A stretch of DNA of 16,035 nucleotides. Origin: a bacterium (lineage in GTDB: Bacteria; Cyanobacteriota; Vampirovibrionia; Gastranaerophilales; JBAXKC01). The DNA lies in NCBI GenBank assembly GCA_037137535.1, contig JBAXKC010000050.1:1-16035 (forward strand). The letters are read 5' to 3'. How positions within the stretch are numbered: position 1 is the stretch's first letter; each line of letters begins with the position of its first letter. The position numbers and the translations under genes are program-made. The notes below the pieces were generated by a model. The model ran no database searches. It was not told the DNA's origin and saw only the letters and a list, made by a program, of their open reading frames with translations. Below, in pieces: positions 3,130 to 15,993 of this stretch.

Positions 3130-3338
3130 TCGTTGCTTGATGGTTTCGATGTCTAAAGCCATCGACTCTCTTTTTATTTTTTGAAAAATAAAAAGAGTGC
3201 AAAAACAAAAAAAACATAGTAATTTTGACCGCTACTGTTTTCTTTTCTTACTTTTTGAGTTGTTTAACACATAATAATTTTTGAGAAAAAGGCAAACCTC
3301 TCGTGGATGGTGGTTCTTTGGTTTTTTTTATGAAAACT
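3130..3338 (-). repeat. Dispersed structured repeat, copy A
   Basis: Reverse complement reads ...CCAAAGAACCACC...GGTTTGCCTTTTTCTC...ACTCAAAAAGTAAGAAAAGAAAACAGTAGCGGTC...CTCTTTTTATTTTTCAAAAAAATAAAAAGAGAGTCGATGGCTTTAGACATCGAAACCATCAAGCAACGA, colinear with copies B-G. Confidence 0.9.
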
Positions 3339-3356
3339 ATCAAAACGATTCAATAA

Positions 3357-3391
3357 AAAAATCTTGAGTTTAAAGACAACTCAAGATTTTT
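3357..3391 (-). terminator. Intrinsic terminator of the 86-aa gene
   Basis: Perfect 14-bp inverted repeat AAAAATCTTGAGTT-N7-AACTCAAGATTTTT, ~20 nt after the stop codon. Confidence 0.75.
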
Positions 3392-3412
3392 AATTTTTTT
3401 TTAATAAATTAT

Positions 3413-3673
3413 TTAAGCTATTAAATCAAGTCCGAATTTTGAATTAGAAGGCTCATTTGCACCTGAAATATCATCCACTATACCTTTAAAGAAAGATTTT
3501 AAAGGGTTAGCTCCATAAGTATCAGACTCAAGGTTTAATCTCTCAATATCTACATCAATATCATCATTCTCCAAAACAACAGGGTTTAATAGATTCTCCT
3601 CAGAAGCAGAGTTTCTTTTGAATGCTACATTATTATTTATATTATTAAATGATGGAATATTAAAAAGTTTCAT
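3413..3673 (-). CDS. Hypothetical small acidic protein (86 aa)
   Basis: Strong RBS AAAGGAG upstream of the ATG and its own terminator. N-terminus is N-rich with PSF/VAF. No recognisable domain. Confidence 0.7.
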   Translation of the reverse strand: MKLFNIPSFNNINNNVAFKRNSASEENLLNPVVLENDDIDVDIERLNLESDTYGANPLKSFFKGIVDDISGANEPSNSKFGLDLIA

Positions 3674-3920
3674 TATTTTTCTCCTTTATTTGAAACGAAA
3701 GTTAAATCCCCCTTGAAATACTAATATTTCAAGGAAAAATACTTATTCCGCCTTTGTAATTATGTTTACAAAAGCATTTAAGTAAATTATATAGTTAGAC
3801 GTTCCTTTCAAATGTACAAACAGTATTTGTAATTTGATGGTTAGATTATTAAGTGTAACCTTTACACATTTATAAGGAACAAAAAATTATTATATACCCT
3901 TAATTCTGATTCTCAATTGG

Positions 3921-3962
3921 CCGAAAGTATAATACAATTCGTTTGTTGTGTTATACTTTCGG
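3921..3962. repeat. 17-bp-stem inverted repeat in the divergent intergenic region
   Basis: CCGAAAGTATAATACAA-N8-TTGTGTTATACTTTCGG, with one T-G wobble. Confidence 0.8.
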
Positions 3963-4112
3963 ATAGTATTTATACTCATGTCTGATGACTGTGTACGTTA
4001 TTCTGTATGTGCTATATCCTCGCTAATCCTTATTTTTAGTTCATTTTAAATATTAAATTTAAAATCTTTTTAATCTAATACAAATAGGTGTTTTTTATAA
4101 GTTTATTTTATT

Positions 4113-4121
4113 TGCTATAAT
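4113..4121 (+). promoter_or_regulatory. Candidate extended -10 sigma70 promoter for the MCP gene
   Basis: TGCTATAAT matches TGnTATAAT, ~215 nt upstream of the MCP start. The AT-rich context lowers specificity. Confidence 0.35.
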
Positions 4122-4336
4122 TTACATAGCTTAACACGAAAAATAAAAAATCACTTATCTCAAAGACATGTTGAATTATGTAGAATCAACGTTTATACTA
4201 TAAAAGTTAGTAGCTTTACAAGAAGATAGAGTCTTTCTTTTTATCTTTAAATTAAGTGTTTTTTTAAAGATAAAAAATAATAATAAAGCCATCAGATTAT
4301 AAGTGGGTTGCCTTAATCAATAAAGGAGTTTATTTT

Positions 4337-13576: not shown

Positions 13577-13641
13577 AGGGTATTTTTCTAATTATTTTCA
13601 AGTTTTATTTAGAGTGCAGTAATCTTATAATTTAACAATAC

Positions 13642-13912
13642 TATTTTGTAAAAACTTCAACCAAAGACCCACCACTCACGAGCGGTTTGCTTCTTTTTTC
13701 GAAAATGAGTTTGTGTAAAACAGCTCAAAGAGTATGAAAAGAAGCTAGTAGCGGTCAAGAAGCGCCATGTTTTTATTTTTGCTAATTTTTTATTTTTCGA
13801 AAAATAAAAAGTTAGTCGATGGCTTTAGACAAAGAAATCATTAAGCAACGAGGATAATTTATTTGTGAAAACACATGGTTGAAGAGATGCTGAATCAAGT
13901 TCAGCATGACGG
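13642..13912 (+). repeat. Dispersed structured repeat, copy F, with terminal REP-like palindrome (13886-13912)
   Basis: CCAAAGACCCACC...GCGGTTTGCTTCTTTT...GAAAAGAAGCTAGTAGCGGTC...CTAATTTTTTATTTTTCGAAAAATAAAAAGTTAGTCGATGGCTTTAGAC...CAACGAGGATAAT...GATGCTGAATCAAGTTCAGCATGACGG. Confidence 0.9.
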
Positions 13913-13929
13913 TTTTAAGAATCAGCACC

Positions 13930-15372
13930 TTAAATATTTATTTTTTCTTTCATTCTCATCATAAGCTCAAATGGCGAGGATAGGGATGTTCCTGTTACCG
14001 TATCAAACCCTTTCCCTTGAAAAAGCCCTGTAACTTTGTCCCATAGGTTTTGTCTGTATAGAAAATACGGGATAAGTTTATGGTCATCGCTTACAAATTT
14101 TCCTGCTGTAAAATTGCTGATTAAAGTGTTATTAGCACTCCAGTCGTAGATTTTGCCGTTTTTATCCATTGCACCTACTGTTATGACGTTATCTGCAAGA
14201 CTTAACGGATTCAAATAATCTTTTCCGTAATTTCCACCGGAAACTGTAAACGGGATTTTATGGGAGTATTTTTCTATTTCGCATAAGCTCTCGTTCAGCC
14301 AATGATAAAAAGGAGTTCCTAGTGCTAAATCTTCCATGTTTACGTGGGTTATTTTGTCTTTTATGGCTTGTCTGTTGTTTTCAAAGAGTTCCTGTTTGAA
14401 ATTATTTGAGTAGTCCTTGATCATAGCTCTAATATTTTTTTTGCAGCTAGCAATGTTTTCATGGTTTATAGAATCGGGAATATTTTTTAAATATTCAGGC
14501 AATTCTTCTGGTTTTTTTGTGTAATGTTCTGACATTACATCTTTTAGCTTTTTCATGTGTTCTGAAAAGACTCTAAACTCAAAACTCCAGCCTGAGGAAA
14601 GATTTATTCCATCGGGAATTAAGCCTTTTTCTATTTGTTTGTTAAGTTTTTTCAGAGCAATAAACATTGAGCGGTCGTGATAACCTGTTGTTCCATCAGC
14701 AAATTTTGCAACAGGTAGTTGGATTTTAATTAATTTTGCTGTCGGATCGCAGGTTCTTGCAACTTTTTCGGAGCAATCGCCATGTGTCCTTGTTTTTGTA
14801 AGTGCAGATTTCCAGTCATCAAGTAATACAACGACTTTTTGAGGTGTTTCAAAAAACTTCTTTTTTACATTAACAATGGCTTCTTGAAGTTCTAATCTGA
14901 GCAATCCGTCATTTATGCCTGCAATACTGTTTTGCCAGTTATTTATTATTCGTCTAGTTATTTTCTCTTTTAAAGTGTTTTTAACTTGTTCTGCATTTGT
15001 TTTATCCGATAATATATGTAAAATATCTTTATTGCTAAGATCTTTTGCTTCAATAGGGGCTGGTAAATTCACTCCTGTCGGACCTTTTCCTATAAGTTTA
15101 TTTTTTACTATATCAGTAATATCAGTAACAGCATTTGCTTCAAAATTTTTAAAGCCTGCACGAGTTTGACCGCTTGGTTTTTCATGAGTAAATAATTTTT
15201 CCAATTTTTCAGAGCTCGTAAATAAATCTTCTATTAGTTCTATTCCGTAACTGCATTGTCTTAATAAATTGTGTTCGTATAATTCTCTTTCTTTTGACAT
15301 GGTTTCTTTAATGGGCAAAGCACTAGCTTTGACAGTATTAAATACTGTCTCGCCAACAGATAAACTCAACAT
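13930..15372 (-). CDS. Atypical subtilisin-like (S8) serine protease
   Basis: Subtilase motifs in the correct order: VVLLD (D185), THG (H197), INLSSG, VSGGN (oxyanion N381), VITVGA and GTSLSSP (S463). ~175-aa uncharacterised N-terminus with no Sec signal. Confidence 0.8.
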   Translation of the reverse strand: MLSLSVGETVFNTVKASALPIKETMSKERELYEHNLLRQCSYGIELIEDLFTSSEKLEKLFTHEKPSGQTRAGFKNFEANAVTDITDIVKNKLIGKGPTGVNLPAPIEAKDLSNKDILHILSDKTNAEQVKNTLKEKITRRIINNWQNSIAGINDGLLRLELQEAIVNVKKKFFETPQKVVVLLDDWKSALTKTRTHGDCSEKVARTCDPTAKLIKIQLPVAKFADGTTGYHDRSMFIALKKLNKQIEKGLIPDGINLSSGWSFEFRVFSEHMKKLKDVMSEHYTKKPEELPEYLKNIPDSINHENIASCKKNIRAMIKDYSNNFKQELFENNRQAIKDKITHVNMEDLALGTPFYHWLNESLCEIEKYSHKIPFTVSGGNYGKDYLNPLSLADNVITVGAMDKNGKIYDWSANNTLISNFTAGKFVSDDHKLIPYFLYRQNLWDKVTGLFQGKGFDTVTGTSLSSPFELMMRMKEKINI

Positions 15373-15388
15373 AAATAAATCCTAATAT

Positions 15389-15430
15389 AAACTCTCTAAA
15401 CTCTACTAAAAACTCTCTAAACTCTATTAA
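15389..15430. repeat. 21-bp tandem duplication just upstream of the S8 protease start
   Basis: AAACTCTCTAAACTCTACTAA (15389-15409) and AAACTCTCTAAACTCTATTAA (15410-15430), one mismatch. Confidence 0.85.
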
Positions 15431-15716
15431 ACCAATATTAAAATAATTTTAAACATAACATCAAAAATTAATAAAAACTCACCTATAACGTTTGACACCA
15501 CTTAAAAAACTTTTGCAAGAATTTTTAAATATTTTAATAATTAGCCTATTTATTTTATTTTAAGAGAAAAAGAAAAATAATAAAGTAAAAAAAAACCAAC
15601 TTTTTATATGACCTCAATTCAAACAAAAAAGAATAAAATCATACTGTAATAGTAAATAAAGTCTTCCACATTTCAGTCGACATTATTCAATTTGTAAGAT
15701 GAGAAGAGGGAACAAA

Positions 15717-15839
15717 ATGTTTAATAATAAAACTATATTGGCAATTATTGCCATATTTATAATTGTTCTTGCTTTTACAGCCCTCTCCAGTGATACAAGC
15801 GTTTTAAGATTAATTGAATCTGCCGGAGCTTGTGCGTAA
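15717..15839 (+). CDS. 40-aa small protein with a single hydrophobic helix or signal peptide: MFNNKTILAIIAIFIIVLAFTALSSDTSVLRLIESAGACA
   Basis: Translated by hand (below the ORF-track cutoff). Purine-rich RBS GAGAAGAGGG 6 nt upstream of the ATG; K5 followed by ~17 mostly hydrophobic residues; TAA at 15837-15839. Confidence 0.7.
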   Translation: MFNNKTILAIIAIFIIVLAFTALSSDTSVLRLIESAGACA

Positions 15840-15884
15840 AAGGCTTTTTATTATACTGATTAACTAATTTTATACGAGCATAAA

Positions 15885-15993
15885 AGTTTTCGTAAAAGAA
15901 AAAACCAAAGCTCAACCACTAAGGAGCGGTTTGCTTCTTTTCTCAAGAATTATATTGTGCAAAACGACTCAATGAGTAAGAAAATAAGAAGCT
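15885..15993 (+). repeat. Dispersed structured repeat, copy G (3'-truncated)
   Basis: AGTTTTCGTAAAAGAAAAAACCAAAG...GAGCGGTTTGCTTCTTTTCTCAAGAATTATATTGTGCAAAACGACTCAATGAGTAAGAAAATAAGAAGC. Similarity stops before AGTAGCGGTC. Confidence 0.88.

Follow-up and report, generated by a model that had tools for sequence, protein, structure and literature searches.

A non-coding, AT-rich and hairpin-rich element of about 260 nt is present in seven diverged copies on a metagenome contig of 16,035 nt from a low-GC bacterium of a poorly sampled lineage, where it occupies most of the intergenic gaps. The entire contig is the window that was analysed and all copy counts refer to it alone. The copies are old, lie at unrelated loci and are made of hairpin modules that are open to loss, duplication and remodelling, whilst clear constraint is limited to a 22-nt core formed by the base of hairpin 1 and an adjoining 11-nt single-stranded linker. 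There is roughly an even chance that the copies represent a new, lineage-specific family of small non-autonomous hairpin-rich intergenic repeats akin to pneumococcal BOX elements and to MITE-like or REP-like repeats. It has the look of an ancient selfish repeat, of a sort already familiar, rather than a proven new RNA.

The family can be recovered from a single member. With copy D (9661-9936) as the sole blastn query, the six remaining copies are returned at 13664-13919(+), 8212-8422(-), 6176-6321(+), 12836-12995(+), 3130-3338(-) and 15885-15988(+), with E values from 1e-40 to 8e-24; the top score in 100 block-shuffled windows was 33.7 bits. A profile built from the seven copies found no eighth in the window at E<=10. 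Pairwise identity among the copies is 59-77%, the GC content of the element is 28-35% and the seven copies amount to about 1.7 kb in 16 kb, or about 11% of the contig. Their flanks are unrelated, and their orientation along the contig, from A to G, is - + - + + + +. The copies are composed as follows.

3130-3338, minus strand: copy A, with 5' variant I, a weak 5' hairpin, a degraded hairpin 1, the core (3226-3247), hairpin 2 with an additional TTTTTGC unit and an intact hairpin 3, without the 3' palindrome; located beyond the orf86 terminator, 234 nt upstream of mgtA
6136-6441, plus strand: copy B, with 5' variant II, hairpin 1, the core (6228-6249), hairpin 2, a decayed hairpin 3 and the 3' palindrome to 6396, then a second hairpin-3/downstream module at 6405-6441; located beyond the MCP gene's own terminator (6072-6099)
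8186-8424, minus strand: copy C, with 5' variant I and the best 5' GC hairpin (8379-8394), hairpin 1 as a near-perfect long palindrome (8326-8375), the core (8313-8334) with one change, hairpin 2 deleted and a different palindrome sequence in the position of the 3' palindrome; occupies the entire convergent gap between the TPR gene and orf362
9665-9926, plus strand: copy D, the full-length reference copy, with 5' variant I, hairpin 1 (9713-9769), the core (9760-9781), hairpin 2 (9799-9828), a weakened hairpin 3, CAACGAGGATAAT and the 3' palindrome; located between divergent genes, with its end 270 nt upstream of that for isoamylase
12825-12995, plus strand: copy E, with the core (12867-12888), hairpin 2 intact and hairpin 3 extended to 12 bp, without the 3' palindrome; the 5' module and left arm of hairpin 1 are absent or replaced by the isoamylase terminator (12795-12814)
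13642-13912, plus strand: copy F, with 5' variant II, hairpin 1 (one G·U), the core (13736-13757), hairpin 2 with an additional TTTTTGC unit, hairpin 3 altered by mutation in its 3' arm, CAACGAGGATAAT and a 3' palindrome that is perfect over 9 bp; occupies the convergent gap between the GNAT gene and the S8-like gene
15885-15993, plus strand: copy G, with 5' variant I and hairpin 1 only; the contig ends at 16035

An earlier, sequence-only reading of this DNA had described a dispersed family of multi-hairpin repeats, non-coding and with some copies truncated or variant, and that description is supported. The seven copies lie on the strands it gave, at its borders or within a few bases of them; copy E probably starts near 12825. 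Truncation is likewise real, although copy G is not merely cut by the contig end, as had been supposed, and departs from the family after hairpin 1. The statement that seven of the nine gaps after mgtA are filled is correct if a 40-codon ORF at 15717-15839 counts as a gene. Of the modules in the order given by the same reading, hairpin 1 is found in five of the seven copies (degraded in A, lacking its 5' arm in E) and hairpin 2 in five of six (deleted in C). Hairpin 3 is intact in A and E only, having been broken without compensation in four of six copies, and the palindrome is found in B, D and F only, being absent from A and E. Module content varies, through losses (hairpin 2 in C, the palindrome in A and E, everything past hairpin 1 in G) and through repeats (6405-6441 in B, the additional TTTTTGC unit in A and F), and no internal module forms a tandem array. 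At the 5' end the division into two variants (B and F versus A, C, D and G) is genuine, though they are only a few bases apart, and TTTG[CG]TT-hairpin modules are a fair description of hairpins 1 and 2 that adds no mechanism.

The conserved core stands out from this background. The linker, AGTAGCGGTC, is exact in five of the six copies that reach it, with one change in C, whilst G diverges before it; a longer pattern, GAAAAGAAnnnAGTAGCGnTCA, has six matches in the window against none in 200 shuffles. No other stretch of 22 columns is as conserved as the one made up by the 3' arm of hairpin 1 and the linker (43 of 20,000 column permutations were as good), with mismatches in 6 of 138 cells against 17% in the rest of the element. 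The most conserved region is central and not terminal. Conservation of the hairpin 1 loop falls below that of the core, but other parts vary more than the loop.

The hairpins, by comparison, are inherited and not maintained, and they decay like DNA without selection for pairing. The full copies do fold better than shuffles, with z values of -2.1 to -3.2 as RNA and -2.9 as DNA, and folding strength is about equal on the two strands. Covariation across 65 hand-placed pairs does not rise above shuffles, in a set of seven sequences that gives little power: pairs with both sides changed number 9 against 6.1±1.9 in shuffles (50 of 500 shuffles as good), and the covariation score is 0.110 against 0.102 (118 of 500). 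Sorting the 68 departures from a Watson-Crick consensus pair gives 7 that are still Watson-Crick, 15 G·U, 17 A·C and 29 of other combinations, and because the G·U and A·C departures are nearly equal there is no strand preference (p=0.86). Copy C has had its hairpin 1 remodelled, the 3' arm having become the exact complement of the 5' arm, as is expected from template switching within a DNA quasi-palindrome. Outside the core, variation is 16.6% in stem columns and 21.1% in unpaired columns (Fisher p=0.04, cells not independent). Some selection acts, since the core is strongly conserved and these outer stems slightly better conserved. The suggestion of a structured RNA family made from the sequence is not upheld, given the lack of covariation above shuffles, the strand-symmetric departures and the uncompensated decay of hairpin 3. 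What emerges is a clean example of hairpins inherited without selection beside one short selected core.

A role in RNA or transcription would make the element either a small-RNA family or a module that acts in cis at 3' ends, as a terminator, an insulator or a stabiliser of transcripts, kept by selection beside many genes. Every one of the six complete gaps with the 3' end of a gene in it is occupied, against one of three divergent gaps, and the four copies behind a co-directional gene all point the same way as that gene; both biases (p about 0.08 for gaps and about 0.06 for orientation, by our own count in a small sample) count in favour of the selfish-repeat reading but would also fit a transcription-linked function, as would the conserved core and the better-than-shuffled folding of full copies. 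The 5' module is laid out as an A-rich tract, a GC hairpin and a T-rich tract, and is called terminator-like on both strands in C and on the antisense strand only in D and F. Both convergent gaps are filled, by C and F, with no additional terminator-like site in either. Nevertheless, such a role is unlikely. On the sense strand, A, B and F have only a weak 5' hairpin (-2.3 to -2.7 kcal/mol). A, B and E sit behind separate, better terminators, and no promoter-like pair at a conserved position was found in the copies by eye or by scan. Rfam, a search of which had been proposed along with the RNA suggestion, gave no match at gathering threshold over the whole window, and with permissive thresholds on D and F the best scores were 19-27 bits against thresholds of 50-59. 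The lack of covariation above shuffles, the equal G·U and A·C departures, the broken hairpin 3 and the strand-symmetric folding also count against it.

It is more doubtful still that the element is a classical MITE, that is, an internally deleted DDE-type insertion sequence in which terminal inverted repeats and target duplications have been eroded by age. The element is small, AT-rich, highly base-paired, intergenic and without a transposase, as a MITE would be, and two copies carry inverted matches: 19 nt at 84% at the outermost ends of B (36 of 1000 shuffles as good) and a perfect but subterminal 9 nt in F (19 of 1000). However, no consistent terminal inverted repeat exists across the four complete copies (B, C, D and F), as the matches lie at differing positions in B, D (108 of 1000) and F and there is none in C (989 of 1000). 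Target-site duplications beyond chance are also lacking in these four copies, for which direct words were compared in five boundary sets with ±10 nt slack; the longest flanking word is one of 8 nt in C (80 of 1000 shuffles), with the rest at 531-1000 of 1000. The best-conserved part is, moreover, central. No ORF is common to the copies, and the contig has no transposase or recombinase domain (8 ORFs by Pfam, 9 by NCBIfam), nor, by the same two databases, a RAYT gene, HUH/Y1 domain, TnpA or integrase. The domain searches and the shuffle-tested comparisons of ends and flanks bear out the earlier remark that transposase, shared ORF, long terminal inverted repeats and obvious target duplications are missing.

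The spacing of roughly one element per gene, usually just downstream of genes of unrelated function, could also suggest recombination sites that bound gene cassettes or modules, similar to integron attC or Xer/dif-type boundaries, and the hairpin 1 loop may loosely resemble an Xer-type site. This is very improbable, as that loop is less conserved than the core and the genes include large housekeeping-type ones (mgtA and a glgX-like gene). Integron attC arrays have their sites in one orientation, about 60-140 nt long and with an integrase nearby; such an array was rejected here, where the orientation is mixed (A and C on the minus strand), the element measures about 260 nt and the contig has no integrase or recombinase. 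A 30-nt inverted match lies near both contig ends, which, with the metagenomic origin of the contig, might hint at an assembly artefact or chimera producing false repeats, but this can be practically dismissed, since copies 23-41% apart cannot be collapsed or duplicated reads and the ORFs around them are intact.

Under the favoured reading of a selfish BOX/MITE-like repeat, the element would have spread by copying into intergenic DNA, helped by an enzyme whose gene lies in another part of the genome, and what the mobilising enzyme recognises may be the conserved core of hairpin base and linker. Copies would then persist where they are harmless, downstream of genes, and some may now act as terminators, because the two convergent gaps contain nothing else. 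Speculatively, HUH/Y1-type single-strand mobilisation fits better than a cut-and-paste DDE transposase, given that the subterminal hairpins are asymmetric and that neither terminal inverted repeats nor target duplications are present. A bolder proposal, which we consider a long shot, is that the core is the recognition and cleavage site of a single-strand-specific enzyme (HUH/Y1-type or other) that has spread a 260-nt multi-hairpin cargo to nearly every gap in the lineage, or else an RNA motif to which a protein binds, within a 3'-UTR element of very high abundance. If the enzyme-site version were true, the system would be REPIN-like, with a unit that far exceeds all described ones in size and complexity, and its density (about 11% of the contig) would be near the top of the known range. 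Were that density to hold genome-wide, a single repeat family would account for a tenth of the organism's DNA, which would explain both the poor assembly and the scarcity of the lineage in genome collections. For tracing the enzyme by which the element is moved or bound, the core offers the obvious starting point.

Relatives were sought beyond the contig. The element has no match among plasmids and phages, and two core-motif scans of 185,579 species genomes gave no demonstrable relative. The motif scan returned 106 loci, 77 of which are single hits, with ~70 expected by chance on a uniform-base estimate. The other 29 come from 'MAG: Eubacteriales bacterium isolate SUG1529', many of them at its contig ends, where the same 22-25-nt motif (AAAAGAAnnnAGTAGCGGTCAAAA) lies near the centre of a ~330-nt multicopy intergenic repeat (L001, L009, L021 and others). 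The profile match to this repeat spans 26 nt and scores 4.6 bits, below several single-copy chance hits; flank-only alignments give p values of 0.07-0.75 (local) and z values of -1.0 to 0.8 (global), and the covariance model of the element scores its loci at 12 bits or less. The SUG1529 element is also GC-richer and has long terminal inverted repeats, unlike the element here. Nothing beyond the motif is alike, and the presence of the motif inside it is compatible with chance.

On present evidence, the element adds one more to the many lineage-specific intergenic repeats already known, and it can be compared with several established systems. IS200/IS605-derived elements carry a subterminal hairpin at each end, lack inverted ends and target duplications, insert beside a fixed 4-5-nt target and go with a TnpA (Y1) in the same genome. 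That inverted ends and duplications are absent here fits this pattern, and B, C, D and F have a 5' GC hairpin and a 3' palindrome, although these are mutually unlike and poorly conserved. The bases that precede the 5' border differ among the copies, with ..TTAC/..ATAC near B, D and F and not near A, C and G, and the contig has no TnpA. With the REP/BIME/REPIN group, mobilised by RAYT (Y1/HUH) enzymes, the element shares hairpins in place of inverted ends, a lack of target duplication and a short conserved motif beside a hairpin, and the linker contains GTAG, the conserved REP tetranucleotide. REP units measure tens of nt and often occur in inverted pairs. They are short GC-rich palindromes (PMC3184786), whereas the unit here, AT-rich and about 260 nt long, has at least five unlike hairpins, and the contig has no RAYT gene. 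The filling of both convergent gaps recalls SPRITE, the pneumococcal repeat resembling a Rho-independent terminator, in which a T-run directly follows the hairpin and which is enriched where convergent genes end. SPRITE, however, measures about 105 nt and consists in essence of a single terminator-like hairpin, whilst only the 5' module is terminator-like here, and weakly so in three of six copies. The resemblance to MITEs (Correia, Nezha, Chunjie, RUP and others) lies in being small, AT-rich, strongly base-paired, intergenic and non-autonomous, as these are characterised in PMC3049150 and PMC3184786. The marks that define MITEs, terminal inverted repeats and target-site duplications, were tested here and are absent as family features. 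BOX elements of Streptococcus pneumoniae and S. suis are composite boxA-boxB(n)-boxC repeats, and S. suis has further BOX-type families that differ in their modules and in the larger size of the end ones, 115 and 133 nt (PMC3049150; PMC3184786). Like the element here, they are described in these papers as intergenic non-coding composites with variable modules and predicted stem-loops, without a transposase and with an unclear mode of spread. The likeness is one of architecture, and no relation in sequence is expected. The present element is built without a boxB-like tandem array, and its best-conserved part is the central 22-nt core rather than the end modules.

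Repeat finding, multiple alignment and a profile search each recovered, in the same places and on the same strands, the seven copies that the sequence-only reading had picked out in the window. With copy D as the sole blastn query, the other six were returned at E values of 1e-40 to 8e-24, the best score over 100 block-shuffled windows being 33.7 bits, and the pattern GAAAAGAAnnnAGTAGCGnTCA occurs six times in the window as against none in 200 shuffles. A profile search found no eighth copy in the window at E<=10. The copies are as follows.

3130-3338, minus strand: copy A, lacking the terminal palindrome
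6136-6441, plus strand: copy B, complete
8186-8424, minus strand: copy C, counted as complete, lacking hairpin 2 and with a terminal palindrome of other sequence
9665-9926, plus strand: copy D, the full-length reference
12825-12995, plus strand: copy E, lacking the 5' module, the left arm of hairpin 1 and the terminal palindrome
13642-13912, plus strand: copy F, complete
15885-15993, plus strand: copy G, the 5' half only

The element is modular, and its parts are arranged in the following order.

Part 1: 5' module, of which there are two close variants (copies A, C, D and G; copies B and F)
Part 2: small GC hairpin, variable from copy to copy, then GCGGTTTG
Part 3: hairpin 1, with an outer stem of 11 bp
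Part 4: linker AGTAGCGGTCA
Part 5: small variable hairpin
Part 6: hairpin 2, a palindrome of 13-16 bp made up of A and T alone
Part 7: hairpin 3
Part 8: CAACGAGGATAAT, between hairpin 3 and the terminal palindrome
Part 9: terminal palindrome

The alignment bears out two earlier proposals, that there are two 5' subfamilies and that some copies are truncated. An additional TTTTTGC unit is present in copies A and F, and copy B has a second, diverged version of the post-hairpin-3 segment placed after its terminal palindrome (6405-6441, comparable to 6304-6340 and 13825-13861), which together with 6121-6139 forms 19-nt inverted ends. In copy C (8326-8375) the two arms of hairpin 1 are exactly complementary over about 18 bp, the right one having been rewritten to fit the left in place of the usual inner loop. 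The resulting palindrome of 24 nt at 92% resembles a quasi-palindrome 'corrected' by template switching. Compared with shuffles, full copies show better folding, whether as RNA of either strand (z -2.1, -2.1 and -3.2) or as DNA (z -2.9).

Pairwise identity between the copies is only 59-77%, and the family is therefore not the product of a recent burst. The sole clear constraint within the element is its core, the 22 columns comprising the right arm of hairpin 1 and the linker, which hold five mismatches over six copies; an equally clean stretch arose in only 43 of 20,000 column permutations. Outside the core, mismatches amount to 16.6% in stems and 21.1% in unpaired columns (p=0.04, with cells that are not independent).

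The further suggestion that the copies constitute a structured RNA family was not supported. With 65 base pairs assigned manually to the alignment of the seven copies, 79.8% of cells paired as against about 50% with the partners slid, a high fraction that is to be expected because the structure was derived from the same sequences. Covariation over these pairs does not exceed that of shuffles: both-side changes were seen in 9 pairs against 6.1±1.9 (a count reached by 50 of 500 shuffles), and the covariation score was 0.110 against 0.102 in shuffles (118 of 500 as high). In hairpin 3 the departures from pairing are broken pairs only. Among 68 departures from the Watson-Crick consensus pairs, Watson-Crick pairing persists in 7, while G·U accounts for 15, A·C for 17 and other combinations for 29, and this balance of G·U to A·C gives no sign of RNA-level selection on either strand. 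Seven sequences nevertheless provide little power, so that a transcription-linked or RNA-level role, the main rival explanation, keeps some probability; the placement of the copies relative to the genes also bears on it.

203-2896, minus strand: mgtA
3413-3673, minus strand: 86-codon ORF
4337-6049, plus strand: methyl-accepting chemotaxis protein (MCP)
6491-8161, plus strand: TPR/heptosyltransferase-like protein
8426-9514, minus strand: 362-codon ORF without a family
10196-12739, plus strand: GlgX/isoamylase-type enzyme
13079-13576, plus strand: GNAT acetyltransferase
13930-15372, minus strand: weakly S8-like protein
15717-15839, plus strand: 40-codon membrane-like ORF

Seven of the nine gaps after mgtA are occupied, as had been counted, the empty ones being 3674-4336 and 15373-15716; the cut gap at 1-202 also has no copy. 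All six complete gaps that include the 3' end of a gene are filled, compared with one of three divergent gaps, and copies A, B, E and G, the four that follow a co-directional gene, are all oriented like that gene. These biases, at about p=0.08 and p=0.06 respectively by our own count, are suggestive only. Copies A, B and E each follow a good terminator that belongs to the preceding gene and is separate from the element (3357-3391, 6072-6099 and 12795-12814, respectively). Copies C and F fill the two convergent gaps entirely, with no further terminator-like site there. The 5' module, with an A-tract, a hairpin and a T-tract, resembles a two-way terminator and is called as terminator-like on both strands in copy C and on the opposite strand in D and F; its sense hairpin is weak in copies A, B and F. 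The placement biases point towards a transcription-linked or RNA-level role, which on balance we consider unlikely as the main explanation. That role and the repeat-family reading are compatible, since co-option of old repeats as terminators is common.

The window is a complete metagenome contig of 16,035 nt, with a GC content of 27-38% along it. Against 5.8 billion proteins, the nearest relatives of the isoamylase are at 68% and then 54% identity, those of MgtA at 59-64%, and those of the TPR protein at no more than about 38%, one identical 448-residue fragment (P0241) aside; the relatives are named as cyanobacterial, Melainabacteria and others. Such low identities indicate that the lineage is barely sampled. 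The identical TPR fragment lies on a separate 2,003-nt contig, so the same organism has been assembled at least once more, in smaller pieces. Upstream of the MCP gene, the roughly 660 nt without genes (3674-4336) contain an 18-bp hairpin at 3921-3962 and strong promoter-like sites at 3889-3916 (minus) and 4094-4121 (plus), and Rfam gave nothing notable there (best 15.4 bits). No Mg-sensing leader known to Rfam was detected in the stretch of about 234 nt that separates copy A from the start of mgtA (2897-3129); the best score there, 31.7 bits where the threshold is 50, belonged to an unrelated sRNA. A direct repeat of 37-38 nt at 73-76% (4250-4288 and 15547-15585) lies about 50-130 nt upstream of the starts of the MCP gene and the 40-codon ORF, and may be a motif of promoters or leaders that the two genes share, or else a chance likeness of AT-rich sequence. 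Near the contig ends, 25-30 nt from each, 25-54 matches 15977-16006 in inverted orientation (30 nt at 87%); the right-hand part is directly 3' of hairpin 1 of copy G, and the match may represent another small repeat or the linker region in diverged form. Breakage of the contig within copies at both ends was ruled out, since there is only this match and the actual ends differ.

The copies were described as having no long terminal inverted repeat, obvious target-site duplication, shared ORF or transposase, and each of these statements stands. Among copies B, C, D and F the best inverted matches lie at differing positions, and none is common to the family: the outermost ends of copy B match over 19 nt at 84% (36 of 1000 shuffles as good), copy F has a subterminal match of 9 nt (19 of 1000), copy D has none of note (108 of 1000) and in copy C it is absent (989 of 1000). 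Direct repeats flanking the copies do not exceed chance. A small ORF from the conserved ATGTTTTTG runs for 51, 23, 7, 31 and 25 codons, begins with ATC in copy C, diverges in frame after indels and has no ribosome-binding site; it is thus not kept between copies. None of the nine genes of the window encodes a transposase, integrase or nuclease. A tRNA-like or tmRNA-like origin was rejected (ARAGORN, 0 genes), and so was an internal promoter, as neither inspection nor the computed sites showed a −35/−10 pair in a conserved place on one strand or the other. Readings as integron attC or as Xer/dif sites, which the loop of hairpin 1 may loosely resemble, were rejected too, the window containing no integrase.

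Rfam, proposed earlier as a check, gave no matches in the window at gathering thresholds and only chance-level scores at permissive ones. Plasmid and phage collections gave no match to copy D as the sole query (blastn, 11-nt words). In one genome per species from 185,579 species, a 19-nt core pattern, which relatives with a variant core would escape, had no match. A relaxed pattern of 21 nt with 17 fixed bases, which relatives differing at any fixed position would escape, found 106 loci in the same set; 77 are single or near-single matches, many in coding sequence, against about 70 by a uniform-base chance estimate. Of 25 papers containing one of three 11-mers from the core string and its complement, the 10 listed concern unrelated eukaryotic or primer contexts.

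The other 29 loci, often at contig ends, come from one genome, the Eubacteriales MAG SUG1529 (JAQXUH01).

SUG1529 loci: L021 (about 880-1330), L001, L009, L011-L013, L016, L020, L023, L030, L033, L034, L047, L051, L056
SUG1529 loci, remainder: L059, L067, L068, L071, L072, L076, L080, L082, L084, L087, L091, L097, L099, L106

They belong to a repeat of about 330 nt that is present in multiple near-identical copies, with several internal variants, and within which many contigs of that assembly end; six loci tested against Rfam gave no match. Unlike the window's family, this repeat is GC-richer and has long terminal inverted repeats, and only a motif of 22-25 nt is common to both. Homology was rejected: the window-family profile matches only 26 nt there (4.6 bits, nhmmer), the reverse profile retrieves the motif alone, flank-only alignments, local and global, are within shuffles, and the 5' border of copy D agrees with the SUG1529 terminus at 17 of 20 positions, within chance (p about 0.07; z 0.36). 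A covariance model of the core region scored 117-168 bits on its six source copies and 58.5 on copy G, and with filters off no more than 16.4 bits on the loci retrieved. The SUG1529 motif is accordingly taken to be a single chance match, repeated because the repeat around it is multicopy, although a very distant relation may exist.

The best-supported reading is that the window's repeat is an old, lineage-specific, non-autonomous, hairpin-rich intergenic family. It is dispersed at unrelated loci, gains and loses modules and has no coding capacity; its quasi-palindrome remodelling is of a DNA type, its stems decay strand-symmetrically, and its conserved core is a hairpin base plus linker. Its spread would have relied on an enzyme whose gene lies elsewhere, and the core would be the site that this enzyme recognises. 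One may speculate that a single-strand (HUH/Y1-like) route was used rather than a DDE transposase, because inverted ends and target duplications are missing.

By the definitions given in two accounts, MITEs need terminal inverted repeats and target duplications (Croucher et al. 2011, PMC3049150; Delihas 2011, PMC3184786), and neither mark was found as a feature of the window's family. REP/REPIN elements resemble it in combining a hairpin with a short conserved motif without duplication, but are short and GC-rich. SPRITEs may share its terminator-like character and placement between convergent genes. The closest analogue in kind is the BOX-type composite repeat, of which larger variants occur in S. 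suis; it is modular, folded and of unclear mode of spread. On this comparison the repeat is filed as a new member of the known kind of small interspersed intergenic repeats, outside the named families.
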